Positions 7,217 to 31,731 of a DNA stretch of 32,000 bases are shown here, piece after piece. Within the stretch, counting starts at the first letter, position 1, and each line of letters opens with the position of its first letter. Location of the stretch: the NCBI GenBank assembly GCA_048886185.1, contig JBHLKY010000003.1:1-32000 (forward strand), read 5' to 3'. The notes under the pieces are model-generated. The model had not been told where the DNA came from. It was given only the letters and a program-made list of their open reading frames with translations, and searched no databases. Both the position numbers and the translations under genes were made by a program. The stretch is from Candidatus Hermodarchaeota archaeon. GTDB taxonomy: Archaea; Asgardarchaeota; Heimdallarchaeia; Hodarchaeales; Hodarchaeaceae.

Positions 7217-7334
7217 TCTTTATTCAGTCTTTTGAATCACAATAAACTAAAGAAAGAATTAAGTTCAAAAAATATAATCTCTCCAATAATCTCAAATCCC
7301 AATATATATCGATCTAGATGGAGTAAAATCCCCC

Positions 7335-7802
7335 GTGACTGCTGATAAACCCTTAAAAATTACATTATTAGGTGTTAAGCAGTCAAAACCAGGAAATAAG
7401 TTTATTTTCGTGGGTGAAACCGACATCTGCTCTGATTGTCGTCTTCGTGGAGCTTGTTTAAAACTTGAGAAAAATAGGGTATATGAGGTTGCTAGTGTAA
7501 AAGATACTATTCATCCTTGTGACGTGTTTGCACAAGGAGTTCAAACAGTTGAGATATTTGAACCGTCATATACAGTCTCAACTGGCGTAAAACTTGCCGT
7601 GGAGGGGGCAATGGTTACCTTCAAACGTCGTGATTGCGATTTAATTGATTGTCCTCATTTTTATCACCATTGTCGACCAATTTACCTGAAAGAGGGTGAA
7701 AAATTAAAGATCCTTGATGTTTCGGATGAATCTGTTGACTGTACACAGGGATATCACCTGAAAATCATAATAGTTGATCGAAACAATAATCACAATGAAT
7801 AG
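7335..7802 (+). CDS. UPF0179 family protein
   Basis: ITLLG..., CSDCRLRGAC, HPCDVF..GV..VE and a second C..C..C cluster typical of this archaeal family. Confidence 0.8.
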   Translation: MTADKPLKITLLGVKQSKPGNKFIFVGETDICSDCRLRGACLKLEKNRVYEVASVKDTIHPCDVFAQGVQTVEIFEPSYTVSTGVKLAVEGAMVTFKRRDCDLIDCPHFYHHCRPIYLKEGEKLKILDVSDESVDCTQGYHLKIIIVDRNNNHNE

Positions 7803-7823
7803 TTTTAATCCTGAGGAAATAAT

Positions 7824-8609: not shown

Positions 8610-8641
8610 TTTTTCTTAGACAATTACTGAATAACGTATCT

Positions 8642-8836
8642 TCAGCTTGTCTTCATTTTGGGAACATATTTTTTTGTCCACTTAAATTTCCTTGGATCTC
8701 TTTTGAAGTCTAACAAAGATCTACGACACTTACGGCTACAAAATCGAACTAATTGACCATTTCTACGTACAAACGAGATTCCTGTTCCTGCCTCGATATC
8801 ATGACCACAAAATGCACATGGGAAAATCCTTACCAT
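8642..8836 (-). CDS. rpl24e: 50S ribosomal protein L24e
   Basis: CAFCG..I..GTG, FCSRKC, RDPRKFKWT. ATG 8836 is preceded by GGTGA; GTG 8845 is an alternative start. Confidence 0.96.
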   Translation of the reverse strand: MVRIFPCAFCGHDIEAGTGISFVRRNGQLVRFCSRKCRRSLLDFKRDPRKFKWTKKYVPKMKTS

Positions 8837-8869
8837 ATTGATCACCAGTATTTTAGCTTATTTCTATAT

Positions 8870-9085
8870 TTAAGGGCGTTTTAAGTTCCGAGCTTCACGT
8901 TCAGTCTCCCTGAGTAGGAGGGTATCACCTTTTCTTATTGGACCTTTCACATTACGAACTATAATACGTCCACGATCTCTTCCCTCAAGTACTCGGACTC
9001 TAACTTGAGTAATTTCTCCTGTAACACCAGTTCGTCCTATGATTTGTAGAACTTCAGCAGGTATGGAGATTTCTTCCTCGCTCAT
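8870..9085 (-). CDS. rps28e: 30S ribosomal protein S28e
   Basis: [37 protein letters not shown]. Confidence 0.98.
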
Positions 9086-9645: not shown

Positions 9646-10695
9646 TTGGGGAAGATGACCCAAAAAAATGTTATTAGTCAAGGTAACAACCCAAATTATC
9701 TAAGAGAAGTGTCAAAATCAAACATTGAGAAAAATTTGTTAAGTGCTATACAGATAGAACCAAGAATCATAAAATCGCAAAAAATAGGATCCTTAACATT
9801 ACGGGGAGGTTTAATTGGAACTATTATATCATCCTCATTGATGTCCTTAGCAATAATTAGTATGCCTTTCGATGCTGGTTTTAGAACCCCTTTTAGGTAT
9901 TACCTCGTCAATTTTGGTCTTTATACTGGGATTCTGGGGTTAATTCTATTTACTTTTATTTTCTATCTCGGAGTACTAATCACTTTCTTTAATGAAATTA
10001 AGGCAAAACGAATTAACAGTGTAACCATCAAAAACTTTGTAATAAATAGAAAATTCTTGGTGATTATATCCATAATTGCAGCAAATTGGGCTTTAAGTCT
10101 TATCCCTCAAGTTTTTCTTCTTCCTTTTTACAGTCAGGTTGGTCTATATGGAGGAGCGTCTTCTTTTGCTTTTCCTCTTGAAATTGGTAAAGATTTTGAA
10201 CAGTTCATCTTAATTGAAATCGTTCAGGGAATTTTAGAACATCCCGATCTTGAAACTGGGATATTTGGTAGATTGATTAGGCTAATTGCAATTGGTATAT
10301 TGATTTGTACAGTTTACTCTTTGATTTGGTCATTAATTGAAATTTTCAAGGATTTTAGACATCTGAGCGAAAAGACACCCTATGGAAAAATCGTGCTGGA
10401 TTTATGTTTCAAAGCTCTAATTCTGGTATTATTGATATTTGAGATTATCAGTCCAATCTGGGAATTTGCTGATCCTTCGGGTTTCCAAAGGCTGTGGTGG
10501 TCAGATTTCTTGATAGATCTCTTTATTGCTACTCCTCTCTCGATTTTTATATTACTATTTTTAATAACAGGAAGTTTTACGAATGATTCCTTTGTAATGG
10601 AAGATAAAACAAAGTTTAAATCTAGGTTGGTCTTTTCAATTTCCCTTACATTTTTTATAGTTGGATACTCTTGGTTTTTGGTATATGTATATTGA
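9646..10695 (+). CDS. Uncharacterised polytopic membrane protein
   Basis: 349 aa with roughly 7-8 hydrophobic segments; no family recognised. TTG 9646 or ATG 9655 start. Confidence 0.75.
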   Translation: MGKMTQKNVISQGNNPNYLREVSKSNIEKNLLSAIQIEPRIIKSQKIGSLTLRGGLIGTIISSSLMSLAIISMPFDAGFRTPFRYYLVNFGLYTGILGLILFTFIFYLGVLITFFNEIKAKRINSVTIKNFVINRKFLVIISIIAANWALSLIPQVFLLPFYSQVGLYGGASSFAFPLEIGKDFEQFILIEIVQGILEHPDLETGIFGRLIRLIAIGILICTVYSLIWSLIEIFKDFRHLSEKTPYGKIVLDLCFKALILVLLIFEIISPIWEFADPSGFQRLWWSDFLIDLFIATPLSIFILLFLITGSFTNDSFVMEDKTKFKSRLVFSISLTFFIVGYSWFLVYVY

Positions 10696-10773
10696 GTAAA
10701 CACCCCCAAACACTCGCACGGGATTTTTGCTGATTTAAACTCGACATCTACAGAAATAAGTTGAGGGGCAATC

Positions 10774-10851
10774 CTATGTATTCTCATCAATTCTGCGGTT
10801 TTTACTGTACCCCTCGGGCTGTTCATAATTTAGATAAAACGATTTATTCAT
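10774..10851 (-). pseudogene. Truncated duplicate of the rpl7ae N-terminus (MNKSFYLNYEQPEG then unrelated sequence, 25 aa)
   Basis: 11 of the first 14 residues match L7Ae MSKPFYVNYEQPEG; similarity stops abruptly at 10810; SD decayed from GGAGGT to AGAGTT. Confidence 0.8.
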
Positions 10852-10884
10852 AATTTGACTAACTCTAGGGCCTTATTTCAGATT
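10810..10884. repeat. Direct repeat copy 2 (75 bp)
   Basis: 67/75 identical to 9434..9508, same orientation. Confidence 0.95.
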
Positions 10885-11310
10885 CCAATCTTTAGCCCAA
10901 TTATGTATTTTTTCATTTTTTAAGCAAGGATGATTTCGCTTCAAATAGCTATTAGATCCCAAGATTTAACACAGAAATAGACCAATCTTAGCTGATATGT
11001 AATTTCTTTACCTTCAGGGTACCCTCTCAAACAGAATTCTTCTGAAATGCAAAGAGAGCTTGAAGAATCCCAAGTAAGAGTACTTAATAATGGGAAGTAT
11101 ATGCCTTACAATGTAAAATAAGAGGAAAAAAAGAAATCAAGCTTAATGAAAACAGTAAAAGATTAATTAATGTCTGTTCAGTCTAATATTAAACAGATAA
11201 AATCCATAGTTCCCCCAGAACACAAAGATGGGAAGGTATTTTAAAGCAATGTATAATGTTCCTGTTAATAGGACTTTGAAGTTGAAAAAATTTCCTTTGA
11301 GAGGATAATA

Positions 11311-13455
11311 ATGTCATCAGAAGTTTATGAAAAACTAGGGCTTTCTATTGAGGAGGGGCAGATATATGCAATCATGGCCTCAAAGTTGGTTCGAACCAAG
11401 GAAGAAATAGAATTATTAGCTGAGAAGATTGCACCTCAAGTTGAAAACCTTCTAAAATCATTGGAGGAAAAGAAGTTCATTCGAATGATTCCTGGAAAAG
11501 TACCTCAATATCATGCTTTAGCCCCTCCTATTGCAATCAGTCACCAAATGCATCATCAAGTAGAGACAACATCCTCGGAGTACAATGATGAGATTAACTC
11601 ATATTGGGAACAAGGGCAAATATCCTTGCAATCCATAGTCAATGAGCTACAAGCAGGTGTTAAACAGCTAATAGAATTTAAAAATGGAACCTCTTCGGGT
11701 CTTGAAAAGTTTATTAATCAGGTAGACGGTACCATTAAATCTGAGGAGGAAAGACTTGAAGGAGAGATAAATAAAAACACCCAAGTCCAGAAAGATACCA
11801 TTGAAATTTGTGGGCATACATTTAGTCTAACCTTACAATCTTTATTAAACAAGGATATGTTAAATCTAATAGAGGAAGCTAGAAAGATTCATTCCGATTT
11901 TCGTGAACAATTACAAGATTTTATTGGTAAAATAACAGACGAAACGAAAGAAGAATTTTCAGACAAATTTCAAAACTGGATAAACCAAAGCCTCGAAGAA
12001 ATGGAGGTTGGAATCCCGTCAACTCAAAAACAACGCGATGAAGAACTGACAATTTCAACTGAATATATTGATAAAACTGGAAATAAATTCGAGAAAACGA
12101 TCCTAGAATTCAGTAATCAATTTCCTAAACTTGTTGAGGATTTCACAGCACAACATTCTAATGATTTCAATATTTTAGACAGAAATTTTAAAGGAACCAT
12201 AAATAAAATAAAGAGTCGGTTTCTGGAAATTCAGAATGAGGCGAATAATCGATTAAGTAAACGAGTATCATTTGGGAAAAGTGGATTCGAAGCCATTAAT
12301 AAAATAGTAGACCTTTCAATAAATGAGATTGACACATCATATAAAAGTATTGAAAACCAAATTGAAAATATAATTCAAAATTCAGAGCAAACTAGCTCAT
12401 CTTTAGCGGAAACTGTGACGTCAAATCTAACCAAACAAAATAGGGAATTTCAAGATTTTCTAAGAGAAATTAAATATGATTTAACGGAGGCAATCAACAA
12501 TTCATATGAAAAAACAATTTCTACTCTGCAATCTGTTTCACAGAATATCCGAAATTCATCTTTACAACAAAAAATTATCATTTCTCGGCAAATAAATCAT
12601 TTATCCGAACTTTTGGCCGAAAAGAACCGCTATTATCTTACCACGACCGATCAGGTATTAAATGCCTTTTTTACTCATATCAATACTGAAACTCAAAATC
12701 TGGTTGATCGAATGATCCAGAATGTGAATGATTGTTTAGCTATAACAACAAATACTCTTATTCAATCGGGTCAAACTTATTTTGAAATAATAGAGAGAAA
12801 TCTCTCTTCTATTTTTTCCTCATTAGATTATGAGGTTGAGGATTTAACAACGAAATTAGATAACATTCAAATGAATCTTGAAACTAAAATCAATAATTCT
12901 ATAACGGATGTTAATAATTCAATCTCCACTAATTTCAATCAATCTGTCAAGGCAATTCCAGACAGATTTTCAAAAGGCTTAGCTCAAGGCCAAGAAATAA
13001 TTAATGTATTGCGTGATATTAACACCATGACGCTAAAGATCCCAATTGAACAAATCGAACACACCTATCTCCGAATTGAATCACTAGAAGGTATAACCAA
13101 AATACTTGAGGCAATGTTGGCTCGAACCAAAAGCACCATTCAGATAATCCTCCCTAACATTTCCCTCCTCCCAATTGAAGCAATAAAACAGATAACACGA
13201 CGTAGGATTCAAATATTAACTCAAATTAAATCCTCAGACAATGTAGAGGAACTGAAGGATTTGGATAATGTCCATCTTAAGAGTTTTGACGATCTAGGAC
13301 ATGTGTACGCCATTGCACGAGATGGAACAGAAGAGATTATTATTGGTTCAGGGAAAGATGAAAAAATACCCTTAATTGCTACAATTGATGAGGAACTCGC
13401 AGCTGTACTTAAAGAAATTATTCAGGATTATTGGCCCAGAGGGAGAGCCATCTGA
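11311..13455 (+). CDS. TrmB-like HTH protein with a very long coiled-coil insert and TrmB-like C-terminal domain
   Basis: N-terminal KLGLSIEEGQIY...LKSLEEKKFI...PQYHALAPP matches the TrmB wHTH pattern; about 500 aa Q/E/N/S-rich amphipathic helix; C-terminal alpha/beta domain (AMLARTKSTIQIILP...AIARDGTEEIIIG). Confidence 0.75.
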   Translation: MSSEVYEKLGLSIEEGQIYAIMASKLVRTKEEIELLAEKIAPQVENLLKSLEEKKFIRMIPGKVPQYHALAPPIAISHQMHHQVETTSSEYNDEINSYWEQGQISLQSIVNELQAGVKQLIEFKNGTSSGLEKFINQVDGTIKSEEERLEGEINKNTQVQKDTIEICGHTFSLTLQSLLNKDMLNLIEEARKIHSDFREQLQDFIGKITDETKEEFSDKFQNWINQSLEEMEVGIPSTQKQRDEELTISTEYIDKTGNKFEKTILEFSNQFPKLVEDFTAQHSNDFNILDRNFKGTINKIKSRFLEIQNEANNRLSKRVSFGKSGFEAINKIVDLSINEIDTSYKSIENQIENIIQNSEQTSSSLAETVTSNLTKQNREFQDFLREIKYDLTEAINNSYEKTISTLQSVSQNIRNSSLQQKIIISRQINHLSELLAEKNRYYLTTTDQVLNAFFTHINTETQNLVDRMIQNVNDCLAITTNTLIQSGQTYFEIIERNLSSIFSSLDYEVEDLTTKLDNIQMNLETKINNSITDVNNSISTNFNQSVKAIPDRFSKGLAQGQEIINVLRDINTMTLKIPIEQIEHTYLRIESLEGITKILEAMLARTKSTIQIILPNISLLPIEAIKQITRRRIQILTQIKSSDNVEELKDLDNVHLKSFDDLGHVYAIARDGTEEIIIGSGKDEKIPLIATIDEELAAVLKEIIQDYWPRGRAI

Positions 13456-17946: not shown

Positions 17947-19080
17947 TTATTCTCTTGAATAATAGCTTGAGGGTTCAATTCCATGGATTTTCATTAGTTC
18001 AGCTACTTTTCCACTAATTACAAGTGGGGCCTTTTGTAAGTCTGAAAGGTTCCGTGACCCTGTAAGGAAGCAAGCCAACTTAAGCTGATATTCTATTTCC
18101 TCTATTTTTTGTACAACTGCCTCGGTAGAATGTTTCTGAACAACAAATAGAAAGGGAATGGCCATACCACCTGCATCTGCTCCCAACGCAATTAACTTTG
18201 CAATATCCAATCCATTTCTTACTCCACCTGACCCAATGATCACTCCATTAAAATTTTTTATTGCAAGGACTGTACTAAGAGCTGTAGGAACTCCCCAATC
18301 CCAAAACACTTCACCTGTGTTTTTATATTTGGATAAAGTTGTTCGAATTGCTTCTACACCAGCCCATGAGGTTCCTCCAGCTCCTTGAATATCTATTGCT
18401 TTAAACCCCATCTTTTTGATTTGTTTAATGTCATGAATACTGAAACCTGATCCAACCTCCTTGGCAATGACAGGGATGGAACAATTTTGAATCAACTGCT
18501 CTATTTTTTTATGTAATCCACTTAACTGGGTGTCACCTTCAGGTTGAATTGCTTCTTGAAGGGGATTAAAATGGACTGCAAGTGCATCAGCGTCAATCAT
18601 ATCAATGATTTCTTGGAATTGAGATTCAGTCAGTCCTTGCGCGAGCTGCCCTGCTCCAATGTTTCCAATGATAAGTGAACTGGGTGCGTTTTCTCGAACC
18701 ACATTGAAAGATTCCCTCACATCTTCATTCTCTAAAGCTGCCCGCTGACTCCCTATTCCCATACCAATGTTTGTCTGTTCAACGGCTTGAGATAATAATG
18801 CATTGAGTTTGTGTGTGAAACCATGTCCTCCAGTCATCCCTGATATTATCAGTGGAAGAGAGAGTTTCTTATTAAAAATTTTAGCAGAGAGGTCAACCTC
18901 ATCAAGATTTAAATCAGTGGTTGCATGATGGACAAATGAGATATCTTCCAATCCTGTTGTGATGTTTCGGGCTTGAACATCATGTTCCAAGCAAATTTGT
19001 ATGTGAGCCAACTTCCTGTCTGAAGTTAAATCGCCTTTTTTCTCAAGTTTGTTAATTACATCTTTATATTCAGTTTCCAT
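17947..19080 (-). CDS. fni: Type 2 isopentenyl-diphosphate delta-isomerase
   Basis: RKLAHI, GMTGG, GSQRAA, NIGA, HFNPLQE, KEVGSG, GAGGTSW, SGGVRNG. Confidence 0.97.
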   Translation of the reverse strand: METEYKDVINKLEKKGDLTSDRKLAHIQICLEHDVQARNITTGLEDISFVHHATTDLNLDEVDLSAKIFNKKLSLPLIISGMTGGHGFTHKLNALLSQAVEQTNIGMGIGSQRAALENEDVRESFNVVRENAPSSLIIGNIGAGQLAQGLTESQFQEIIDMIDADALAVHFNPLQEAIQPEGDTQLSGLHKKIEQLIQNCSIPVIAKEVGSGFSIHDIKQIKKMGFKAIDIQGAGGTSWAGVEAIRTTLSKYKNTGEVFWDWGVPTALSTVLAIKNFNGVIIGSGGVRNGLDIAKLIALGADAGGMAIPFLFVVQKHSTEAVVQKIEEIEYQLKLACFLTGSRNLSDLQKAPLVISGKVAELMKIHGIEPSSYYSRE

Positions 19081-19300
19081 TGTCTTAATGCTCCTTCAGT
19101 CTTTTTGAACTGAACTTACAAGCAGAAACCTTTGGCACCACCATATCCAGCCCTTCTACTTTCATGTATTTCTGTAATGGTATTCTGATCCTCTAGTTGT
19201 GAATATCAAAAATATTTCTATATGTTATTTGATGCTTTCTTAATCTCTTTTATGAGCATAAAAAAGCCTGTATTCTCTTCGATGAACAGATTAAATAGGT

Positions 19301-19726
19301 TTATTCTTGTTTGAATCTCTTTACGTGCTTTGTAATTGTTGTTGAACTTTTTTCGATATATTTGGATCTATATACATATCCTGGAATCCAGATAACAAAT
19401 CCAAATAATAATCCTAAAAAGAATGTTATTGGGTCGTTCCAAAGAAAGATTTTGTGAAAAATAGTTATAAAAAAAACCAAAAAACCAGATAGAACCCGTA
19501 TGGGATAATGGAGTCTATTTGAAAAAATTTGATGAAGTAAATAAAAAGACAGAATTATGGTGTGACCACTCACTGGAATACTTGTTACAATTCGGATTAA
19601 TGAAAATGTACCGATAATAATACACTCAGTAGACAAAAGAATACGAACATGAATCCCGAGTTTTTTTATCCACATCCAAAGTAGTTCACCCACGAGAATC
19701 CCGAATGGGAAAAATATCGGGATCAT
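19301..19726 (-). CDS. Uncharacterised membrane protein (SGH motif, possibly PAP2-like); frame is open further upstream to 19909
   Basis: Several TM segments, PVSGH and HKIFLWND motifs; 61 extra sense codons upstream without a canonical start. Confidence 0.65.
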   Translation of the reverse strand: MIPIFFPFGILVGELLWMWIKKLGIHVRILLSTECIIIGTFSLIRIVTSIPVSGHTIILSFYLLHQIFSNRLHYPIRVLSGFLVFFITIFHKIFLWNDPITFFLGLLFGFVIWIPGYVYRSKYIEKSSTTITKHVKRFKQE

Positions 19727-19951
19727 GTATATTGGTGGCGAGAAAAGAATTAATGTTTCTGTTGCAGTAATAACAGGTGGGTAACCAACAATATGGAAAT
19801 AAAACCCAGCGATGATAGTTATAAATAATCCAGTGCTATAGACAACTAGTAATTCACCTTTTGGGGAATTATATTCCGATGAAATTACGCTAGACCTCTC
19901 CTCTGATTGTTATCATTTTCCCCCATTAGCATTATCATGAATAATAGTATC

Positions 19952-20524
19952 TCATTTTTCATCTTCGTGCCATCGTTTATATTTCTCATTAGGAATATTC
20001 AAACAGTCTAATACTTTCCCAGTAATGAAATCGAATAAGTCCTGAATAGTTTGAGGTTTGTGATAAAACCCTGGACTTAAAGGAAGAATAATTGCGCCAT
20101 AAGTGGCGAGCTTCGATAAATTCTGGAGACAGGGCGGACTTAGAGGTGTCTCCCGTATTCCAATTATCAAGGGTCGGCGCATTTTGAGCATAATGTCAGC
20201 TGCTCGTGAAATTAAATTCCCAGTATTCGCATTTGCAATGTTACTAACTGTTTTAACCGTAGCGGGTATAATCACCATACCATCGATCAAAGTTGAGCTA
20301 CTAGAAAGGGGAGCATTCATGTCCTTACTATCATAAGATCGAAAAGCTATTTCTTTAATTTCTGCGCTCTTAATACCAACTTCATCATAAAGTACATATT
20401 CAGCCCATTTACTAATAATAACATGAGTTTCAATTTTACTCTCTATCAGAGCTCGGATAACTTCAATTCCGTATTGTATTCCAGAAGCGCCAGTTAAAGC
20501 AACGATTATTCTCTTAGGAACCAT
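19952..20524 (-). CDS. ubiX: Flavin prenyltransferase UbiX
   Basis: ALTGASG, PLSSSS, PATVKT, RETPL, PGFYHKP. Confidence 0.95.
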   Translation of the reverse strand: MVPKRIIVALTGASGIQYGIEVIRALIESKIETHVIISKWAEYVLYDEVGIKSAEIKEIAFRSYDSKDMNAPLSSSSTLIDGMVIIPATVKTVSNIANANTGNLISRAADIMLKMRRPLIIGIRETPLSPPCLQNLSKLATYGAIILPLSPGFYHKPQTIQDLFDFITGKVLDCLNIPNEKYKRWHEDEK

Positions 20525-20635
20525 CAGAATTCACATCGTAATTCTTTGATTCTTTTTATTTCATAAAGTAATTAGTATGATTAATAAAAAAAGAATAGAT
20601 GGATACGATAGGTTGGTGAAAAGGGAAATTAGGAT

Positions 20636-21025
20636 CTAATCCACTTCAACAACGCCAGTATCAGCATCTAGAACTACTTTCGACCCAGAGGTTATTTTTG
20701 TTGTATCTATTTTGTCTACGCAGGGAATTTCACCGATGATACACCCAACAGCTACAATAGCTTCACATTCTTGAAGAATAAGCGCCTTTGGCCCTTTCCC
20801 AGTTTTAGCCATTTGATAGATCACATACGAGCCGACTGTTGACCCTTTACCTGTAGGGAAAACAAGAATCTTGTCTGTTGTGTCTACTCCTTCCAATTCA
20901 TGGCCTTTTTCTACTATAATCCCAGTCTCTGGATCGACTCCACCGTAGAATGAAATACTGTCTTTTGTTACCAGAGCTTCTCCTTCGATCTTTCCTTGAT
21001 AGATTTTTCTACCTGTTAGCTTCAT
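20636..21025 (-). CDS. Phosphomevalonate dehydratase small subunit (AcnX swivel domain, DUF126)
   Basis: ISFYGGVDPETG, GKGSTVGSY; ATGA overlap with the large subunit. Confidence 0.9.
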   Translation of the reverse strand: MKLTGRKIYQGKIEGEALVTKDSISFYGGVDPETGIIVEKGHELEGVDTTDKILVFPTGKGSTVGSYVIYQMAKTGKGPKALILQECEAIVAVGCIIGEIPCVDKIDTTKITSGSKVVLDADTGVVEVD

Positions 21026-22203
21026 TTTAAAGCCTCCTCAATACATTCATCGACAGACATCAGTTTGACCGCAAATTTATTCCTACCTGATCCATAATAG
21101 CACATTTTGGCTGAATCAGAAGCTAAACCATGGAATCGTCCTTTGATTGGAGCGACAACACAGCAAGTATCTGCAGCAATTTTTGCTCCAGAGGTTTCGA
21201 TCATTTTAGTAAAACCCATTCGGTCTGCGATTTGTTTTGTAGGACGAGCTGTGGTTATCCATATCTCTTTCTTTGGATTAACTTTCTTACCTTCAAGTTT
21301 TTTGGCAATATATTCTAATTCTGCAAGAGAAGCGTGTGGACAACCCAAGCTTATGAAATCAATCTCTGTATCTTCGTTGAGATCTGAAATAGCTCTTCTT
21401 ATATCATCTTCAGTTACTTCTGTGGTTTCAGAAGGAATTGCATCAACTCTATCAGGAGTGATACTTTCCATATGGAATAATGCTACTCCTCCATATGTTG
21501 CGTATGAAGCACAAAACGACTTAAGCTCTTCAACAGAAGCTTTGGGAATTCCAGTGATATAGCTAATCTTCTGTCCAAGGCGATCCCCAAGAACTTTACC
21601 TAACGCTCCAAATTGGAATGTTCCGTCAACCTTAGCCTTTACTTCTACTTTGATTTCAGGTTGTCGGTTCTCATCAAGATGAAAGCCATATTCTGGGGTT
21701 TTACCCACAAGAGCTGCACTGAGGGCACTGGGTCCACCTTCTCGATTCGTTCGTGCACCAAGTACAGAGTTTGCATAACAGACAGCACTACTTTCTGACC
21801 ATGCTATATGTTGGCCGTAATGAGGTAGATTACCATAAAGATAAGGAGTGCAACTGCAGGTAGTGATTACACCCATCTTTCCAAATGCGTCAACAACTCT
21901 GTGTTGGTTTTCTGCGAACTCTTCACTGATGGCTAATTTTTTCCATTCTTCAAGATCCATGCCAGCTGGATTAAGTGTAGTAAAAACTCGTACTTTTCCG
22001 TCAATAGCCATTTCAGCTAACCACTCCAAACCAGGTTCGTTTAAATTAGCATAGCTTACTCCAGCAATTTGGACGGATGTAATATCAATCATTCGTTTGG
22101 CGCCATAAATATCTCCAAGAGATATTAAAATTTCCATAGCTTTTTGGGTAGCTTTTCCATACTTTCCTGAAGCCATATCTTGTTCTTCGGAAGTTAATTC
22201 CAT
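21022..22203 (-). CDS. Phosphomevalonate dehydratase large subunit (AcnX, DUF521)
   Basis: QIAGVSY, TTLNP, CSCTPY, WSESSA, GARTNREGG, LGCPHAS, DTC, SAK motifs; mevalonate-pathway context. Confidence 0.92.
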   Translation of the reverse strand: MELTSEEQDMASGKYGKATQKAMEILISLGDIYGAKRMIDITSVQIAGVSYANLNEPGLEWLAEMAIDGKVRVFTTLNPAGMDLEEWKKLAISEEFAENQHRVVDAFGKMGVITTCSCTPYLYGNLPHYGQHIAWSESSAVCYANSVLGARTNREGGPSALSAALVGKTPEYGFHLDENRQPEIKVEVKAKVDGTFQFGALGKVLGDRLGQKISYITGIPKASVEELKSFCASYATYGGVALFHMESITPDRVDAIPSETTEVTEDDIRRAISDLNEDTEIDFISLGCPHASLAELEYIAKKLEGKKVNPKKEIWITTARPTKQIADRMGFTKMIETSGAKIAADTCCVVAPIKGRFHGLASDSAKMCYYGSGRNKFAVKLMSVDECIEEALK

Positions 22204-22218
22204 AATTTTATCTCCTTA

Positions 22219-23526
22219 TTATTCTAAATAATCCTTTAAATCTACTTTAGGAAACTCAGCACGAGCGAAGCTTTTACCTTTGGTAACCAATGGTGCAGTA
22301 AAATCGAATCCAATTTTATTAGTAATTTTGGTTCCAGGTTCAGCACTTGGGTCTAAGCTTGACCCTGGTTCTTTCCCAATATCAACGAGGTCTTTATCAG
22401 CCTGGAAACGGGTAGCCATTGACCATTCGACCTCTAAGGGATTATAAATATCAATATCCTTATCCACCACAAAGACATGTTTACAACTTCTATGGCCTGC
22501 AAAAGCAGCGTGTATAGCTTTCTTTCCATCATCTTCATTCTGTTTATCAATTTTAACGATAGCATGCAACCAAGAAGACCCGCCAGGGTTTACGTTCACA
22601 TCGAGGCATTTGACACCTGCTTCATTCACAGATTTAAAGATCGTAGGTTCGCGTGGCATTCCCATCAGGACTTTATGCTCTAAAGCTCCTGGAACAAGAG
22701 CTTGCCAGATGGGATTCTTTCTGTGAGTAATCTTCTTAACTTCAAAGACTGGTTCGTCTCGGACAATATCATATGTTTCAGTGAGATCGATAAATGGGCC
22801 TTCATCAGAGCGGTCACTCATGAAAACCTTCCCTTCGAGGACTACTTCGCATCCTGCTGGGATCAGAAGGTCCACTGTTTTCGCTTTTGTCACTTCAGTT
22901 TTTGAAAGAGCATTAGCGATTTCCAGTTCGTTGATACCAGTCTTTACAGAGGTTGCAGCAGCAACAAGGATGTTGGGAGTGTTTCCAACACAATAGACTG
23001 CTTCCACTTCTCCTGTTCTCTCTAGAAACTTGTAAAAATCTCGTCCTTTGATTATTCGAGTACTCATCCTATTCTTTTCAAACTGCATTGCACGATGGAA
23101 ATCTAGGTTTTGACCGTACTCGGGATCTTTAGTCACAACAACTGCTGACGAGATATATCGACCTCCGTCTCGTTCGTTGTGTTTTAGAATTGGAAGTCTA
23201 TCGAGATCAACTTCATCCATAATTACCTCTTGACAAGGAGCACCTGTAATTTCCTCTGGTAAGCTTCGGTTGTCAATTGCTGCAGTGAGTTTAGGAATCA
23301 ATTGTGCCGTAGAAATCTTAAAATAATCAGCTATGCTTTCCTTTGTGCAGAACACATTCCCTGCAACCTGAAAATCCGAATATCCCTTCACTTTTTCAAA
23401 TAGAAGTGGAGTTGGTTCTGCTGCCTTTAAAACAGCAGCAGCCTCTATATCGATATTCACCTCCTTACTAATTTTAGTAATTAATCCCCTTTTACTAAGA
23501 TTTGCTAGATATTCACGAAAATACAT
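22219..23526 (-). CDS. UbiD-family decarboxylase, probable anhydromevalonate phosphate decarboxylase
   Basis: ERDGGRYI, FHR, EGPFIDLTETYD, VDKDIDIYN...W..ATRFQ, KIGFD; located between mvk and acnX. Confidence 0.9.
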   Translation of the reverse strand: MYFREYLANLSKRGLITKISKEVNIDIEAAAVLKAAEPTPLLFEKVKGYSDFQVAGNVFCTKESIADYFKISTAQLIPKLTAAIDNRSLPEEITGAPCQEVIMDEVDLDRLPILKHNERDGGRYISSAVVVTKDPEYGQNLDFHRAMQFEKNRMSTRIIKGRDFYKFLERTGEVEAVYCVGNTPNILVAAATSVKTGINELEIANALSKTEVTKAKTVDLLIPAGCEVVLEGKVFMSDRSDEGPFIDLTETYDIVRDEPVFEVKKITHRKNPIWQALVPGALEHKVLMGMPREPTIFKSVNEAGVKCLDVNVNPGGSSWLHAIVKIDKQNEDDGKKAIHAAFAGHRSCKHVFVVDKDIDIYNPLEVEWSMATRFQADKDLVDIGKEPGSSLDPSAEPGTKITNKIGFDFTAPLVTKGKSFARAEFPKVDLKDYLE

Positions 23527-23551
23527 TTTTTCACACCTTTGTCACTGTAAA

Positions 23552-24493
23552 TTATACTCCGATAAGAGTTTTCCACGCGGGATGCCCCGCGTCTTTTAAT
23601 GCGTTGTATACTTTGTTTTGAAGTCCAGAACTAGGAGTTAATGCAATAATATTTCCTCCACGACCAGTACCAGTGACCTTGGCCCCTAAGGCACCGTTAT
23701 CCCTTGCAAGTTTGACCATTTTATCCAAAACATCATTTGATACCGTGATGTCCTGAAGTAGTTTGTGATTCTTATTCATAAGTTGTCCGACTTTCTCTAA
23801 TTCCATCTTTTCTAGTGCTTCGCGACCTGATTCGATTACTTCTTGATATTCTTTAACTATCCCCTCGAACCACGCAGGATCCTCCTCCTTCTTTTTCCGA
23901 ACGTCTGCAACGACTTCTGCGGTGTTAGCTGTCATTCCTGAGCTAGCAATCACTAATTCAATGGGTTTTTCCAGTTTGATTGTTTCGATTGTATTGGAGC
24001 TCCCCTCAAGATTTCGTATAAAATAAACCAAACCACCAAATGTTGACGCGGTATTATCTATCCCACTAGGAGTTCCATGATACCCCTTTTCTCCTTCATA
24101 GGCAGCATTATTTATTTTTGTGTCATCCCATCCAAGGTTAAATTCATCGTTAATGGCTCTCGCCAGTGAAACACAACTTGCTGCAGAAGCCCCGACACCG
24201 CTAGCACAAACAAGATCTCCCCCAAAGGTTATTTTCAGGGCTTTATCCTCTAAGTTAATTCCCATAAAATCTATGATGTTTTTGATCGATTCTTTCTGTT
24301 CATCAAACTTCTTTTTCTTATACCCAGGAACTTCAGGACGGTTATCATTCAGCTCATAACCTGTCCCATCTTTAGATTCAACGATACATGTGGTACTATC
24401 ACCTATTGCGGATGCGAGTGCTGGTACACCATATACCACAAAATGTTCTCCAAATAAAATTGTTTTTCCATAACCAGATCCTTCACCAGCCAT
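23552..24493 (-). CDS. mvk: Mevalonate kinase
   Basis: GKTILFGEHFVVYG, GVGASAAS, PSGIDN, KVTGTGRGG. ATG 24493 follows GGTGGA; the track uses GTG 24505. Confidence 0.93.
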   Translation of the reverse strand: MAGEGSGYGKTILFGEHFVVYGVPALASAIGDSTTCIVESKDGTGYELNDNRPEVPGYKKKKFDEQKESIKNIIDFMGINLEDKALKITFGGDLVCASGVGASAASCVSLARAINDEFNLGWDDTKINNAAYEGEKGYHGTPSGIDNTASTFGGLVYFIRNLEGSSNTIETIKLEKPIELVIASSGMTANTAEVVADVRKKKEEDPAWFEGIVKEYQEVIESGREALEKMELEKVGQLMNKNHKLLQDITVSNDVLDKMVKLARDNGALGAKVTGTGRGGNIIALTPSSGLQNKVYNALKDAGHPAWKTLIGV

Positions 24494-24768
24494 TTTTTCC
24501 ACCAAATCCTTATTTCTATAAAATTCATCTGATTTTTTTTGTCTTTTATTGTTTTCTAAGAGAAGCTAAAAAACTCTTCTAACTTTGATTAGCAATATAA
24601 AATCCTTTTTGTCAGCATCCTGTTCCAGATCAGTCTTATAATTAATACTTATAACTAAATATGAACGCTTTTAGCCAAATGAGTATAGGTGTATAGTTAA
24701 AGTAGAATTCTAGGAGAATTTGGTATTGAAGAAATATTGAAATAACTCTCATTAGTACTCTAAAACAT

Positions 24769-25965: not shown

Positions 25966-26125
25966 AAATAGATTTAAGAAAGCAATTGTTGTATAAATAG
26001 GATAGAATTACAAAGTTTCTAATTAGATACATGAAATAAGACTTCCATACGCTCATCTAAATCGGAAGAAATAAAAAGAGAAATGTGGATAAAAACCTTA
26101 GAATACGTAAAAAGTGGGATTGACT

Positions 26126-26629
26126 ATGACTGATTCCAAAGAAATTGAAACACTCAAAGCAGATTTAGTATTAGTAGCCAAAACGGCTAAGGCTCTTGCA
26201 GATAAGTTAGAAAAGGTAGCTTTAAAGTTTGATGAAATTTTTACTTCTATAAATAGTGTAAAAGTCCCTCAATCAGCACCAAAAGTCGTTGAAGTAGCTA
26301 AATCAACCCCAGCTCCTACTCCAGCACCAAAACCAGCTCCCACACCCTCAGTACACGCTGTAGGAATAGGAGAGGAAACAAAAGCAGGAAGATTACTGGA
26401 TTCATTTCTAAGTCAAGTTCAAACATTATCCAAGGGGAAAGAGATCTCAGACTTATTATCACGCCTAAGAGATCAAGTTATGCAGTCTGCAGAGGTGGGT
26501 TTTCATCCTGCATTCCATGAAATGGGAAGATATGCAAATCAAATTAAAAATATTAGAGAAATATCTGCTGCGGAGAAAGAGCAGCTGATCGAAAAAATTT
26601 ATGATTGGAAAGCACGTCTAACTGGTTAA
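26126..26629 (+). CDS. Hypothetical protein: N-terminal coiled coil, Pro/Ala/Thr linker, C-terminal helical domain
   Basis: Heptad-like N-terminus, TPAPTPAPKPAPTP linker, C-terminal GFHPAFHEM...EKIYDWKARL. ATG 26126 or GTG 26114. Confidence 0.8.
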   Translation: MTDSKEIETLKADLVLVAKTAKALADKLEKVALKFDEIFTSINSVKVPQSAPKVVEVAKSTPAPTPAPKPAPTPSVHAVGIGEETKAGRLLDSFLSQVQTLSKGKEISDLLSRLRDQVMQSAEVGFHPAFHEMGRYANQIKNIREISAAEKEQLIEKIYDWKARLTG

Positions 26630-26670: not shown

Positions 26671-27234
26671 TCAACCTGACCTTACATGATTCCCACATTT
26701 ATTACAGAAAAATGCGTTCTGGGGAATAATAGCATTACATGAGGGACATTTACGACGATTCTCAAAGAAACTACTACTGGAACTGAAGAATTTCTCCTTT
26801 TCTTTTTCTTCGTTTGATTCAAAAGAAGAGGTTTTGAACGGTGAAAAGGGAGGATGTGGCAATTCGTCCGTGGTGGGGGAAGGGAAAAAGGATTTTGATT
26901 GGGAGATACCTATTTCTGTGTTTTGAAGGTTTGAATTTAACCGTGATGTAAGATCCTCGAGTTGATTTGTGATCTGAGACATATAAGGGATGAAAGGGCA
27001 ATTGTTTCCCCCATATCCTTCTAAGGGGGTTTGAAAATTAGTTGATTGTGGGGAAAAAAGTTTGAAACCTATCTTTAATCCCTCCGAACTCTCTGTTATT
27101 GCAATTCCTTGTTCTAACAACCCTCTAATGACTTCCTTGGCAGAATAAGCTCTTCCTTTTATGATGATCTGGCCTGAAATTTGATCGAAAGGATTATTCA
27201 TACCTAAAAGTCCTCGAATATGATTTGTCATCAT
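26671..27234 (-). CDS. Zinc-ribbon domain protein
   Basis: C-terminal CPSCNAIIPQNAFFCNKCG preceded by a Ser/Pro/Phe/Glu low-complexity region. Confidence 0.8.
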   Translation of the reverse strand: MMTNHIRGLLGMNNPFDQISGQIIIKGRAYSAKEVIRGLLEQGIAITESSEGLKIGFKLFSPQSTNFQTPLEGYGGNNCPFIPYMSQITNQLEDLTSRLNSNLQNTEIGISQSKSFFPSPTTDELPHPPFSPFKTSSFESNEEKEKEKFFSSSSSFFENRRKCPSCNAIIPQNAFFCNKCGNHVRSG

Positions 27235-27956: not shown

Positions 27957-28670
27957 ATGGAACAACTAGCGCATGGTATAACTTGGTTACTCGGTCAAGG
28001 ATTAGACTGCAATGTTTTCATTATTGAATCTGAAGATGAATCCCTATTAATCGATTCTGGATTAGGAGGCAGGATCAACTATGGTTTCGGTGTTCACCCA
28101 GACAGTCTGAGAGTTTTAAAAAAAGCCATCGAGCAAAAAAATATTGAACAGGTTTTTCTAACTCATGGACATATTGATCATGTGGGGGGTATCATGGCTC
28201 TTCAATCACAGTTTGATTTTAAGATTTCTACCTCAAAAATTGAGGCAGAATATTTGAAAACTGGAAATAGCTCCTATATTGAACCTTTCCTTGGTTCGAC
28301 ACATGATTCGGCCTCCCCCCCTATCAAGGTTTCACATGAGCTTGAGGAAGGGATGTATCTCGACATTGGAGAGTTCTCTTTTCAAGTCTTACACACACCT
28401 GGACATACTCATGGATCATCTTGTTTGTGGGATAAAAGTCACAGAATTCTCGTGAGTGGAGACACTGTTTTTCCTCAAGGATCTTTTGGAAGAACCGATC
28501 TTCTTTCAGGCAGTGATGAGGAGTTACTTTCTTCATTGCGGCGTCTTTCTGAGTTAAATGTAACAATTCTTCTCCCAGGACATATGCCCCCAGTTATTTC
28601 AACAACATCATCTCCCATCAATTCTATCAAACAGTCATTCGAGAACGCTCGGATGATGTTGGCGTACTAG
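27957..28670 (+). CDS. Metallo-beta-lactamase fold hydrolase (glyoxalase II-like)
   Basis: THGHIDHVGG, HTPGHT, SGDT, GRTD, PGH. Confidence 0.93.
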   Translation: MEQLAHGITWLLGQGLDCNVFIIESEDESLLIDSGLGGRINYGFGVHPDSLRVLKKAIEQKNIEQVFLTHGHIDHVGGIMALQSQFDFKISTSKIEAEYLKTGNSSYIEPFLGSTHDSASPPIKVSHELEEGMYLDIGEFSFQVLHTPGHTHGSSCLWDKSHRILVSGDTVFPQGSFGRTDLLSGSDEELLSSLRRLSELNVTILLPGHMPPVISTTSSPINSIKQSFENARMMLAY

Positions 28671-29156
28671 TGAAACAATTTGAAGGCATGTTTCATCAAT
28701 TGACATATCATCATTTGAAACCTCAACAATTTGGTTATATGAAAGGAGGTCGATGGCATCATAGTATGAGATATTCATTATTTCAGCTTCAATATTTGCC
28801 TCAATTTTCATTTCTGGATAATTGCGAGCAAGTAATCGTTGTTTAAGGATGTCAATACGACATCGTAATACAATGACAAGGTCAAAAATAACTTCTAAGG
28901 GAACAACCATCCCTATCAAACATAATCGTCTTTTAGTGGTTAATTCTGATTCTAAATAACTGATTAATAGGTCATCATCAATGATTACAGAGTCACGATC
29001 AATGTCATATCCTAGGTAGAATCCTTTTTCAAGAATAACTGTGTTCAATTCCACATAATCAAGTGTTAATTGCTTAGAAAGCTTCTTGGCTACACTAGTC
29101 TTTCCTGTTCCAGTTACCCCAGTGATATATAAGAGATAGGGAGAAGAGTGAGCCAT
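28635..29156 (-). CDS. Adenylate kinase 6 / Fap7-like P-loop protein
   Basis: ITGVTGTGKT, DLVIVLRC, RL..RNY...KI..NIEAE. ATG 29156 follows GGAGGT; the track extends to 29240. Confidence 0.85.
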   Translation of the reverse strand: MAHSSPYLLYITGVTGTGKTSVAKKLSKQLTLDYVELNTVILEKGFYLGYDIDRDSVIIDDDLLISYLESELTTKRRLCLIGMVVPLEVIFDLVIVLRCRIDILKQRLLARNYPEMKIEANIEAEIMNISYYDAIDLLSYNQIVEVSNDDMSIDETCLQIVSLVRQHHPSVLE

Positions 29157-29253
29157 AAGAAATACCTCCAAAGCAAAGTATTTTTCTTTATCTTTAAAAA
29201 AATCTTCTGATATATTGAAAGTTAGAGTGAAAATAATCATTTGGGTTTGAATC

Positions 29254-31731
29254 GTGGGTGCGACTATTTCAGTTTTAGCCGAGAAACCTTCTATTGCACG
29301 AGCTTTGGTTAGAGCTTTTTCTATTGTTTATAAACTCAAATTTAAAGGTCGAAGAGGCAAAACAAGATACAATTACATTTATGAAAGCACCATCGATACC
29401 CAAGAAATCTCTTTTCGGATAGAAAAAGACGAATATCGGCTGCGGAAACAGGATTATTTTTTGGTGTCAAGTGTTACGGGTCATATCCTCAATTATGACT
29501 ATCCTCCTCCTTTTGATAAAGACACGAATTGGCGTAATTCAGATCCAATAGATCTTATTGAATTGGAACCTATTGAGGTTCCAATTAAAGAGAATATGGT
29601 GGCTCACATTGAAGAAATTGGGAAAAAATCAGATGTTATTGTCATTGCCACTGATTGGGATGGCCATGGTGAGTCAATAGGACGCCAAATCCTTGAAATA
29701 GCTGCTCGTTGTAATAAGAAAATTAATCATGGCCGAATGCATTTTACAAGTACAAATCCTACCGCTCTGAGAAAAGCTTTTGAAATACAGTCAGATCTCA
29801 ATTGGGATTGGATCAAACAGGTAGATTCGTTAAGAAAACAGGATTTACGAATGGGTTCATCAATCACGCGATTTTTAACTGTTGGAATCCAAAACCAAGG
29901 GATTAAAAACCGAATGATTTCATATGGCCCTTGTCAGACAAGTGTTTTATGGTTGATAACAAATAGATTTCTGGAAAATAGAAACTTCACTCCTGAGAAA
30001 TTTTGGAGAGCCTCTGTTAAAATTTCTACCGTGGAAGACCCTTTATTTTTAGATTGGAAAGAAAATCCAATAAAAGACGAAAAAATCATTAATTCCTTAA
30101 TTTCTAAACTGAATAGAACTGCAGAAGGAATTATCACTGATTATAATGAAGAGTCAGCAACTATCAAGCGGCCTCTTCCATTAGACACCGATACTCTTGA
30201 AGCGGAATGTGCTCAGTTCTTTAGAATCAGTCCCAAACAAGTTGCAGACATTGCTGAGAAATTATATAATAATGGTCATATCACCTATCCTAGGACAGAG
30301 AGCTCTTTTTATCTTGAAAAAGACCTGACTAAATTAGCAGAGAAGTTTATTTCACATGATGAGTTTGGGTCTGTTGCTAAAGAGTGCATTGAGCTGGGGG
30401 GTACTAAAAATCCCAGCAAAGGGAGATTTACAAAAGATCATGAGCCAATAAAGCCAGTTAAGGCATCAAAACAACCTGAAATTGAAAAAATATTTGAAAA
30501 AACACCTGCAATAGCAAATCTAGCATGGAATATCTATTCATACATTGTTTGGAGATTCTTAGCTACCGTTCACTCTGATGTGGCTATAGTGAATCAATAT
30601 ATTATACTTAGTAGTGCATCTGAAGAATTCTATGCTAAGGGACGAAAAATCGTCGATTTAGGGTATTTAAGCTTCTATAAATTCAAAAGAGTAACGGGTA
30701 AAGTGCTACCTCCATTAGAGAAAGGGAGTAAGCACACTATTGAAGCCTTTAAACATCAGGGTTACACAACTCCACCTCCATTATGGAGTGAATCTCAATT
30801 AATCCGAGAAATGTCAGCATTAAACCTAGGAACTGATGCAACACGCTCGACTCACATTGATACTGTTCAAAAACGGATGTACACAACAAATAGAGGATCA
30901 AGGAGACTGTTAGAACCTACCAGTTTAGGAATGGCGCTCTATCACATATTTACAGAAAACGCTGAAGATCTGATTCTTCCCGAAATTCGAGGGAAAGTTG
31001 AATCTTGGACCCAGCAAATCAGAGACCACGAAAAAACTCCAGAAGATGTTGATAAGCTTGTGATTGAGTTGACAACTCATAGCTTGCAGAAAATGAAGGG
31101 AAATCAGGAGGAAATTTTTTCGACTCTAGTTCAAAGCATTGAGACAATGACGGGGATTGGTAAAACTTTTGGAATTTGTCCTGAATGTCAGGGAGATCTT
31201 GTTCTCCATCAGGGAAAGGGAAGCTCACGATTCTTGAAATGCTCCAATTCTCTGTGTAAAATAAGTCTTCCCTTACCAAAAAAAGGAGATTTGTCGGCAA
31301 TCGAGGGTGAAAATTGTCGTATCTGTAACGCGACTCCTCTTTTGGTTACATCTCAATCATACAATTGGATCATGTGTCCTGTTTGTTGGACAGGAAAGGC
31401 AGTAGAAGATCATCCATGGTTTTGCACAGAGTGTACCCGAACTGATTGTCCTTTCTCTGGCTCATGGGAAACTAATTCGCCTGGACAGTCTCTAGGGAGT
31501 TGTTCTGAATGCGGAGGAGACGTTCTCTTAAAATTTGATCAACAGGATACTCAAGTAATGTGCTCCAAGTGTAACCGAACTTGGAAAGCACCCAATCTTC
31601 GTAAGGGAACAACAGTTACTCCCAGTGATCCCTGTGAGAATTGTGGGCGCCAAACATTGTTTATTGCAAAACGAGGAAAAAAACCATACCGTTTATGCGT
31701 GTTCTGCTCCCTTTTCTTTTTCCAAGAGTAG
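29254..31731 (+). CDS. Type IA DNA topoisomerase III with C-terminal multi-zinc-finger region (Top3-beta-like)
   Basis: LAEKPS, TGHI, ATDWD..GE (TOPRIM), DLRMG..ITRF, SYGPCQT, catalytic ITYPRTES, DHEPI, LGTDAT; many CxxC pairs after 31177. Confidence 0.93.
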   Translation: MGATISVLAEKPSIARALVRAFSIVYKLKFKGRRGKTRYNYIYESTIDTQEISFRIEKDEYRLRKQDYFLVSSVTGHILNYDYPPPFDKDTNWRNSDPIDLIELEPIEVPIKENMVAHIEEIGKKSDVIVIATDWDGHGESIGRQILEIAARCNKKINHGRMHFTSTNPTALRKAFEIQSDLNWDWIKQVDSLRKQDLRMGSSITRFLTVGIQNQGIKNRMISYGPCQTSVLWLITNRFLENRNFTPEKFWRASVKISTVEDPLFLDWKENPIKDEKIINSLISKLNRTAEGIITDYNEESATIKRPLPLDTDTLEAECAQFFRISPKQVADIAEKLYNNGHITYPRTESSFYLEKDLTKLAEKFISHDEFGSVAKECIELGGTKNPSKGRFTKDHEPIKPVKASKQPEIEKIFEKTPAIANLAWNIYSYIVWRFLATVHSDVAIVNQYIILSSASEEFYAKGRKIVDLGYLSFYKFKRVTGKVLPPLEKGSKHTIEAFKHQGYTTPPPLWSESQLIREMSALNLGTDATRSTHIDTVQKRMYTTNRGSRRLLEPTSLGMALYHIFTENAEDLILPEIRGKVESWTQQIRDHEKTPEDVDKLVIELTTHSLQKMKGNQEEIFSTLVQSIETMTGIGKTFGICPECQGDLVLHQGKGSSRFLKCSNSLCKISLPLPKKGDLSAIEGENCRICNATPLLVTSQSYNWIMCPVCWTGKAVEDHPWFCTECTRTDCPFSGSWETNSPGQSLGSCSECGGDVLLKFDQQDTQVMCSKCNRTWKAPNLRKGTTVTPSDPCENCGRQTLFIAKRGKKPYRLCVFCSLFFFQE

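Follow-up and report, generated by a model that had tools for sequence, protein, structure and literature searches.

An intact, eukaryote-like topoisomerase III from a Hodarchaeales archaeon with a predicted five-site zinc tail

The gene at positions 29254..31731 of the window (the whole stretch of 32 000 nucleotides analysed here, from contig JBHLKY010000003.1 of a Hodarchaeales genome, assembly GCA_048886185.1) raises the question of how an archaeal type IA topoisomerase with eukaryote-like motifs and a cysteine-rich tail is related to the two eukaryotic paralogues TOP3A and TOP3B. The preliminary description took it for an archaeal orthologue or sister of TOP3B, which would make the TOP3A/TOP3B split pre-eukaryotic and the enzyme a beta-type RNA/DNA topoisomerase. 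We consider it highly probable that the gene encodes the housekeeping topoisomerase III (Topo III) of Hodarchaeales, belonging to a small archaeal clade that adjoins TOP3A and TOP3B, split off before their duplication and kept an ancestral five-site zinc tail. The fold, the intact active site, the anatomy of the tail, the position in the tree and the presence across the order are direct results of the analysis. The original proposal is thus partly supported: the enzyme is an intact, eukaryote-like Top3 and the antiquity of its zinc module is upheld, but its assignment to TOP3B is not.

Gene, domains and active site

The gene is a single open frame on the forward strand with a GTG start, and is confirmed to encode an intact type IA topoisomerase III of 825 amino acids from a Hodarchaeales archaeon. 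An AlphaFold2 model of the full-length protein has a mean pLDDT of 90.5. The Toprim domain (residues 7–165; 29272..29748, forward strand) scores 39.7 bits against PF01751 and contains Glu10, Lys11, Asp134 and Asp136, while domains II–IV of the topoisomerase IA core (residues 183–599; 29800..31050, forward strand) score 283 bits against PF01131 and hold Arg347, Glu349, Asp395, His396 and Asp528, as located by alignment to TOP3B. With the Toprim and Topoisom_bac domains both over their Pfam cut-offs and the model matching the toroidal Top3 structures, the protein belongs to the Topo III subfamily. The catalytic tyrosine, Tyr345 (30286..30288, forward strand), is equivalent to Tyr336 of TOP3B and is followed by a proline of the Topo III type, Pro346. 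The GPCQ signature of the eukaryote-adjacent Top3 clade is located at residues 222–229 (29917..29940, forward strand), and the core motifs quoted in the preliminary description are all present, at residues 197, 222, 395 and 525.

Alignment to TOP3B places the catalytic residues Tyr345, Arg347 and Lys11 in their expected positions (Glu10 and Lys11 being identified by motif), together with the base-stacking Trp93. The ligands of the catalytic metal (Glu10, Asp134, Asp136 and His396) and of the structural metal (Glu349, Asp395 and Asp528) are likewise present according to the ligand list of PMC11743793. Across 60 relatives these active-site residues show little or no variation, with the exception of Asp395. 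Topo III enzymes are marked by a lysine after the Toprim glutamate and a proline after the tyrosine (PMC10969213), and the structural-metal ligands are without counterpart in bacterial Topo I (PMC10969213, PMC11743793); the Hodarchaeales protein has the full set (Tyr345, Arg347, Lys11, Pro346, Glu349, Asp395 and Asp528).

The likeness of the Hodarchaeales enzyme to eukaryotic Top3 is real. Its best match among solved structures is human TOP3B (PDB code 9CAH; 227 bits, in one stretch covering residues 68–734), followed by TOP3A (217 bits), E. coli TopA (120 bits) and Sulfolobus Top3 (115 bits). That the first of these matches extends over core and tail favours TOP3B orthology; however, TOP3B tops the PDB ranking because human TOP3A has lost its long tail. 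The AlphaFold2 model fits the TOP3B and TOP3A cores equally well (TM scores, normalized by target, of 0.88–0.89) and gives 0.78–0.80 against Sulfolobus Top3.

The zinc tail and its distribution

The tail contains 19 cysteines that are predicted from sequence to form five metal sites in the order C4, C4, C3, C4, C4, all encoded on the forward strand. Site 1 is a C4 ribbon (Cys642, Cys645, Cys663 and Cys668; 31177..31257) that matches PF01396 with 22.6 bits, below the cut-off, and site 2 is a second C4 site (Cys688, Cys691, Cys708 and Cys711; 31315..31386). Site 3 is a three-cysteine loop (Cys724, Cys727 and Cys732; 31423..31449) corresponding to Cys706, Cys709 and Cys714 of TOP3B. Two further C4 ribbons follow as site 4 (Cys750, Cys753, Cys770 and Cys773; 31501..31572) and site 5 (Cys794, Cys797, Cys815 and Cys818; 31633..31707). 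The protein ends seven residues past site 5, with no GRF, CCHC or RGG extension, and neither RGG nor RGR occurs in the tail, in keeping with the initial observation that the RGG tail of TOP3B is lacking.

The cysteine order and spacing had been compared to those of TOP3B, and the two proteins are indeed collinear over sites 1–3 (the solved TOP3B chain ends at residue 717), which align residue by residue with human TOP3B (sites as given in PMC12077875). A separate fold prediction for the tail fits the TOP3B C-terminal domain (CTD) with an r.m.s.d. of 2.8 Å over 101 columns covering the first three sites, compared with 18–19 Å on the ribbons of E. coli TopA. This superposition, a further point in favour of TOP3B orthology, is confined to TOP3B as no long TOP3A tail has been solved. 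A VIA-align search with the tail model returned a β-propeller background alone (Z up to 6.1), and an Atlas search with the tail features returned generic PF01396 clusters alone.

The five-site tail is also found in TOP3A, where it precedes the GRF/CCHC extension in Thecamoeba, Naegleria, Rhodelphis, Paulinella, oomycetes, a kinetoplastid, and red and brown algae, and Apiculatamorpha likewise has a long-tailed TOP3A; the long tail has been lost from animal and fungal TOP3A. In profile comparisons the Hodarchaeales tail scores 89 bits with long-tailed TOP3A (73–82 bits when down-sampled to equal numbers), 62 bits with TOP3B and 1 bit with opisthokont TOP3A. The label of a Top3-beta-type tail is therefore not sustained: protist TOP3A and other Asgard Top3 share the five-site arrangement, which is not diagnostic of TOP3B, and comparison with the TOP3B C-terminal profile, the check originally suggested, gave a score under that of TOP3A. 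Moreover, PF23546 (Zn_ribbon_TOP3B) matches neither the query nor four relatives, compared with 46–75 bits for TOP3B controls, and is over its cut-off in none of the 301 Asgard genomes searched. A C4 site 2 is seen in 16/16 Hodarchaeales sequences and in 34/37 of TOP3A, whereas 17 of the 22 TOP3B sequences have D1C3. In a tail-only tree (184 columns) the TOP3B tails form a long branch nested among those of TOP3A.

An alternative is that the protein is an ordinary archaeal TopA whose C4 ribbons resemble TOP3B merely because they are zinc ribbons. Generic double ribbons make up four of the five sites, the comparison of the tail with euryarchaeal TopA gives a total of 66–68 bits (50 bits as a single domain), euryarchaeal TopA tails also score high in the reverse profile search, the Atlas clusters are those of PF01396, and the best NCBIfam match is the archaeal PRK07220, although below its cut-off. 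The part of the preliminary description that foresaw generic fingers as grounds for doubt therefore has some force, the ribbons matching euryarchaeal TopA about as well as TOP3B on total score, but the accompanying prospect of a branch within TopA did not materialize: the core groups with eukaryotes, away from TopA, with support of 97–100. The predicted tail also packs like that of TOP3B and unlike that of E. coli TopA. The three-cysteine site 3 is present in 16/16 Hodarchaeales, 17/22 TOP3B and 32/37 long-tailed TOP3A sequences, as well as in Sifarchaeia, Wukong, Baldr, Asgardarchaeum and family f24, but in none of 21 euryarchaeal and none of 18 canonical Asgard TopA sequences. To judge from these alignments, site 3 is the distinctive element, and plain TopA ribbon arrays are without it. 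The ordinary TopA reading is refuted by the trees and by this distribution of site 3, and we regard it as very unlikely.

Thus, the tail consists of two generic ribbon pairs with a three-cysteine loop between them, put together in archaea. The occurrence of the same module in Sifarchaeia and other Asgard Top3, supported by the trees, bears out the earlier suggestion that it predates eukaryotes.

Phylogenetic position and genomic setting

Two careful trees were calculated from hand-picked subsets of sequences and rooted on TopA groups: a core tree (44 rows, 571 columns, LG+C20 PMSF) and a core-plus-tail tree (35 rows, 769 columns). In the core tree TOP3A (100/100), TOP3B (100/100) and the two together (100/100) form clades with Hodarchaeales outside. 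The Hodarchaeales enzymes group with two element-borne proteins (97/95), and the 97/95 clade takes in Hodarchaeales with these elements, Sif/Wukong, an Aigarchaeota-containing group, the short-tailed families f24 and f16, and the eukaryotes; Top3 of Thermoproteales and Methanosarcinaceae falls just outside it and canonical TopA is distant. Quick trees, including an 87-row set, agree in outline. The core tree has a polytomy around eukaryotic Top3. In the core-plus-tail tree the eukaryotes (100/100) have Sif as sister (95/96), then Wukong (93/93), then Hodarchaeales with the elements, and the whole group is supported at 100/99. The core and full-length trees therefore agree with the early description of the enzyme as eukaryote-like and not within ordinary archaeal TopA, but a sister relationship to TOP3B is not recovered.

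Forcing Hodarchaeales together with TOP3B gave an AU p value of 0.012 (core). With the element-borne sister lineage added, the same pairing gave a borderline p = 0.052 (core), which leaves TOP3B orthology some room, and p = 0.0006 (core plus tail). Placing Hodarchaeales as sister to all eukaryotic Top3 was not rejected (p = 0.44 and 0.21). A further point for TOP3B orthology is that the GPCQT motif has threonine as in TOP3B, rather than the phenylalanine of TOP3A; the threonine is, however, also found in Thermoproteales and Sif enzymes and is therefore ancestral. The contrast drawn between GPCQ and the archaeal GRVQ holds to the extent that the motif is present, but it is not confined to eukaryotes and the Hodarchaeales lineage, as Top3 of Thermoproteales, Methanomethylicia, Nezhaarchaeales, Methanosarcinaceae and Sifarchaeia also has it. 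With TOP3A and TOP3B joined at 100/100 in both trees and D1C3, PF23546 and RGG as well as any Tudor or RMI1_N match lacking, TOP3B orthology is largely refuted by the trees, the AU tests and the absent TOP3B-specific features, and we judge it highly improbable. The trees instead indicate that the Hodarchaeales lineage branches just outside the two paralogues taken together.

As the deep branches are short, the order in which these archaeal lineages join eukaryotic Top3 is tentative. Hodarchaeales receive no special backing as the eukaryotic sister group, since Top3 of Sif and of Wukong is no more distant. A relationship of eukaryotic Top3 to Sif and Wukong Top3 is also described in PMC12680538, with which our full-length tree agrees; its Top3 legend does not name Hodarchaeales.

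The Top3 gene is present in 23 of 24 Hodarchaeales genomes (43–81% identity; divided between two contigs in one of them), and other families of the class yield matches of only 24–29% identity. It is the sole PF01131 gene in a single-contig 4.9 Mb genome and in three further genomes, and a canonical Asgard TopA query found nothing above 30% identity in the 24 genomes. As several genomes have this single type IA gene and no canonical TopA, we infer that it is the housekeeping enzyme of Hodarchaeales. Of the 24 genomes, 15, including the source genome, have a second, unrelated type IA paralogue with a GRVQ motif (three copies were placed by tree), and a division of labour between the two enzymes in the source genome is possible.

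The upstream neighbour, a divergent AK6/Fap7-like kinase gene (28635..29240, reverse strand), is conserved across the order with no functional link shown, and the conserved downstream neighbour encodes a transglutaminase-like membrane protein; this synteny is kept across Hodarchaeales. Together with a metallo-hydrolase, these neighbours suggest no shared pathway. Also in the window are ABCE1, FKBP and archaeal genes of the mevalonate pathway. Eukaryotic contamination of the metagenome bin might be suspected from the eukaryote-like motifs and a bin contamination estimate of 5%. However, the gene is intron-free and lies among the archaeal genes just named on a 257 kb contig, its orthologues occur with the same neighbours throughout the order, including in single-contig chromosomes, and the lineage falls outside crown eukaryotes in all trees. 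Archaeal gene context, order-wide orthologues and trees refute contamination, to which we attach next to no probability.

How Hodarchaeales came by the gene is a separate matter. Their ancestor could have gained it, with replacement of the canonical Asgard TopA, either from a eukaryote of the stem lineage that preceded the duplication or from a mobile element; we give this somewhat under an even chance. Such a transfer would bear on the past of the gene alone and leave the proposed function untouched. Other Heimdallarchaeia carry canonical TopA instead (27–29% identity, different clade), the closest relatives of the gene have a Pol-epsilon-like PolB next to them on element-like contigs, Top3 is listed among genes with probable transfer around eukaryogenesis in PMC12680538, and PMC12395588 argues for proto-eukaryote-to-Hodarchaeales transfers in general. 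Against this, the core-plus-tail tree favours another lineage over Hodarchaeales as sister of eukaryotes, and related forms in Sif, Wukong, Thermoproteales and Methanosarcinaceae fit old paralogy with losses equally well. The element nature and host of the contigs are also putative, the stretches examined showing neither capsid nor terminase genes.

The sister Top3 lineage (P0128, P0348 and P0122) is encoded on metagenome contigs of mostly unannotated genes, which also carry TFIIB, PCNA, ERCC4 or IS605 genes. On two of them Top3 is arranged head-to-head with PolB, the gap ranging from a few hundred bases up to 1.3 kb; between these two contigs Top3 is 55% and PolB 47% identical. The PolB proteins (1351–1391 amino acids) score 265 bits against yeast Pol epsilon and 65 bits against archaeal PolB, and the Pol-epsilon-like PolB of the source genome (195 bits) is 24–28% identical to them. 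The P0128 tail is sister to eukaryotic tails in a short tail tree (95/85), but not in longer alignments. PHROG scans of 20 proteins from the element-like contigs gave no clear virion genes, and an IMG/VR search gave only four distant giant-virus topoisomerases. The contigs may represent viruses or plasmids, with a putative host.

A bolder reading, which we hold to be doubtful, is that the Hodarchaeales enzyme closely preserves the state of the single eukaryotic Top3 before the duplication, active on DNA and RNA without RMI1 or TDRD3, and that the gene moved between Asgard archaea and the eukaryotic stem on large archaeal elements carrying Top3 head-to-head with a Pol-epsilon-like PolB. If so, two eukaryote-like replication genes of Hodarchaeales would share one vehicle.

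Proposed function and comparison with known enzymes

Returning to a housekeeping Topo III, a mechanism can be proposed from TOP3B and other Top3 enzymes. Single-stranded DNA would be held in the groove between domains I, III and IV, and Tyr345, aided by Lys11 and Arg347, would cut the strand to give a 5′-phosphotyrosine adduct. Cleavage would be assisted by the catalytic metal (Glu10, Asp134, Asp136 and His396) and the structural metal (Glu349, Asp395 and Asp528), after which the gate would open, a second strand would pass through without ATP and the break would be resealed. Such enzyme-bridged, ATP-free strand passage is expected because the residues are present and type IA chemistry is established. 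In TOP3B the CTD touches the core and holds the DNA duplex on the upstream side of the cleavage point (PMC11743793); by analogy, the zinc tail may pack on the core and grip the duplex upstream of the cut, and most likely anchors the substrate in this way.

Saccharolobus Top3 performs decatenation and relaxation of hypernegative DNA (PMC11894792), and by analogy this is likely to be the cellular job of the Hodarchaeales enzyme as well. Its targets would include precatenanes, hemicatenanes and recombination intermediates, which it would unlink, and hypernegative DNA or R-loops, which it would relax, apparently without RMI1, TDRD3 or RecQ. The search for Tudor or RMI1-like partners, advised at the outset, gave nothing: RMI1_N, RMI1_C, Tudor and RecQ had no match over cut-off in the 96%-complete source genome. 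RMI1_N also had no match in 83 genomes of the class, but matched no control genome either, so that the absence of RMI1 is weakly shown.

RNA activity of type IA enzymes has been reported across all three domains, and its lack in TOP3A ascribed to rigidity rather than to one residue. Because it is so widespread, RNA strand passage in vitro by the Hodarchaeales enzyme is about an even bet, and would therefore not make the enzyme a TOP3B; there is no sign of a role on mRNA like that of TOP3B.

These results re-polarize the evolution of eukaryotic Top3: the zinc tail usually taken as a TOP3B feature arose before eukaryotes, and both paralogues had it in the last eukaryotic common ancestor; it then disappeared from TOP3A of animals and fungi, while D1C3, RGG and TDRD3 are later additions in TOP3B. 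A soluble, probably partner-free archaeal enzyme with the tail offers a way to ask whether activity on RNA is an ancestral trait and how the tail functions when TDRD3 is absent. The Asgard kinship of eukaryotic Top3 was known (PMC12680538), but we found no paper describing the Hodarchaeales form, an Asgard Top3 tail or its pre-eukaryotic origin in the literature searched, the coverage of which is incomplete.

Among known systems, human TOP3B (PDB codes 9CAH and 5GVE) shares the core fold, the active site, both metal sites, GPCQT and the order of the five-site tail with the Hodarchaeales enzyme, at 25% identity. It differs in its D1C3 site 2 (Cys666, Asp669, Cys688 and Cys691), with Hodarchaeales Cys691 standing at Asp669, and in its PF23546 match, RGG tail and TDRD3, no counterparts of which were found for the Hodarchaeales enzyme, which lies outside the TOP3A+TOP3B clade; the autism-linked Cys666 of TOP3B corresponds to Hodarchaeales Cys688. 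The long-tailed TOP3A of protists gives the best eukaryotic profile score for the tail and is alike in its five-site tail, C4 site 2 and three-cysteine site 3, but the Hodarchaeales enzyme is outside the TOP3A clade, lacks GRF/CCHC and has no phenylalanine in the GPCQ motif, and the RMI1 and RecQ models stay below cut-off in its source genome. Canonical archaeal and Asgard TopA is set apart by the GRVQ motif, which the enzyme lacks, as it does a branch with TopA or an NCBIfam match over cut-off. Top3 of Sifarchaeia (Borrarchaeum) and Wukongarchaeia shares the eukaryote-adjacent clade and sites 1–3; these proteins are only 30–31% identical to the Hodarchaeales enzyme, that of Sif having an extra ribbon pair and that of Wukong ending after site 3. 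Finally, the characterized decatenase TopA/Top3 of Saccharolobus solfataricus (PDB code 6K8N; 668 amino acids) is ∼22% identical, reaches half the score of TOP3A/B and is without the five-site tail, but has the same type IA Topo III fold and, probably, the same role as a decatenase.

Element-like contigs carrying the sister Top3

The lineage closest to the Hodarchaeales Top3 is encoded on element-like metagenome contigs, two of which are unrelated and pair it head-to-head with a B-family DNA polymerase (PolB). The pair occupies 4490-8665 and 10001-12556 at locus L080/L184, on a 161-kb contig, and 4817-8872 and 10001-12625 at locus L186. The polymerase beside the sister Top3 on these contigs is strongly Pol-epsilon-like, scoring 265 bits against yeast Pol2 and matching POL2_thumb. 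The majority of genes on both contigs are without a known family, and the 161-kb contig additionally encodes TFIIB and a JAB-domain gene. The two contigs are likely to represent a family of large archaeal elements.

On a third element-like contig (locus L082, 2723-14011) the sister Top3 is shorter, ending after the three-Cys loop that forms site 3 of the zinc tail. An ERCC4 nuclease gene lies immediately upstream, and genes for TFIIB, PCNA, an IS605 TnpB and a DNA methylase are found nearby.

Other genes of this genome and of the window

A Pol-epsilon-like PolB is an already known feature of Hodarchaeales; that of this genome (contig C16, locus L192, 995-5356) has 1453 residues and scores 195 bits against yeast Pol2. 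A second type IA topoisomerase of 755 residues (contig C17, locus L002, 1015-3282), with a GRVQ motif and three C4 ribbons, forms a long branch close to the Top3 of Baldr and of families f14 and f24; of 24 Hodarchaeales genomes, 15 encode an enzyme of this type. In another genome of this order (G023, contig C620, 6173-7528), a 1092-residue frame carries a type IA domain in its C-terminal part and is, by size and layout, a candidate reverse gyrase-like protein.

Within the window, a minus-strand cluster at 17947-24505 resembles the modified mevalonate pathway of archaea: it comprises genes for mevalonate kinase, a UbiD-family protein, aconitase X, a UbiX-type flavoprotein and an FMN-dependent (IDI-2-like) protein. 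The 714-residue protein at 11311-13455 (plus strand) combines an N-terminal TrmB-like helix-turn-helix with a long coiled region, and a family search with it gave nothing over the cut-off. Two small proteins without a family are encoded at 26114-26629 (plus) and 26671-27234 (minus); one has a coiled N-terminus and a Pro-rich linker, and one has a C-terminal zinc ribbon.

Relatives in eukaryotes and other archaea

Two eukaryotic TOP3B-related cores (P0106 and P0109), one of them from the diatom Thalassiosira profunda, lack the tail and are fused to a DEAD/helicase_C (RecQ-like) helicase.

None of 19 genomes of Asgard family f17 gave any match to the Hodarchaeales Top3 query, so either type IA topoisomerases are missing from them or the search overlooked one. 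Among loci L114-L163, from Thermoproteales and related groups, the eukaryote-type GPCQ motif occurs without the zinc tail in Top3 of Thermoproteus, Vulcanisaeta, Caldivirga and Thermofilaceae, and likewise in Methanomethylicia, Nezhaarchaeia and Culexarchaeia. The GPCQ-type Top3 of Methanosarcinaceae (Methanohalophilus, Methanococcoides and Methanosalsum; loci L098-L152) has a five-site tail in degenerate form and branches just outside the eukaryote-adjacent clade; as these are cultured organisms, they offer an easy test case.
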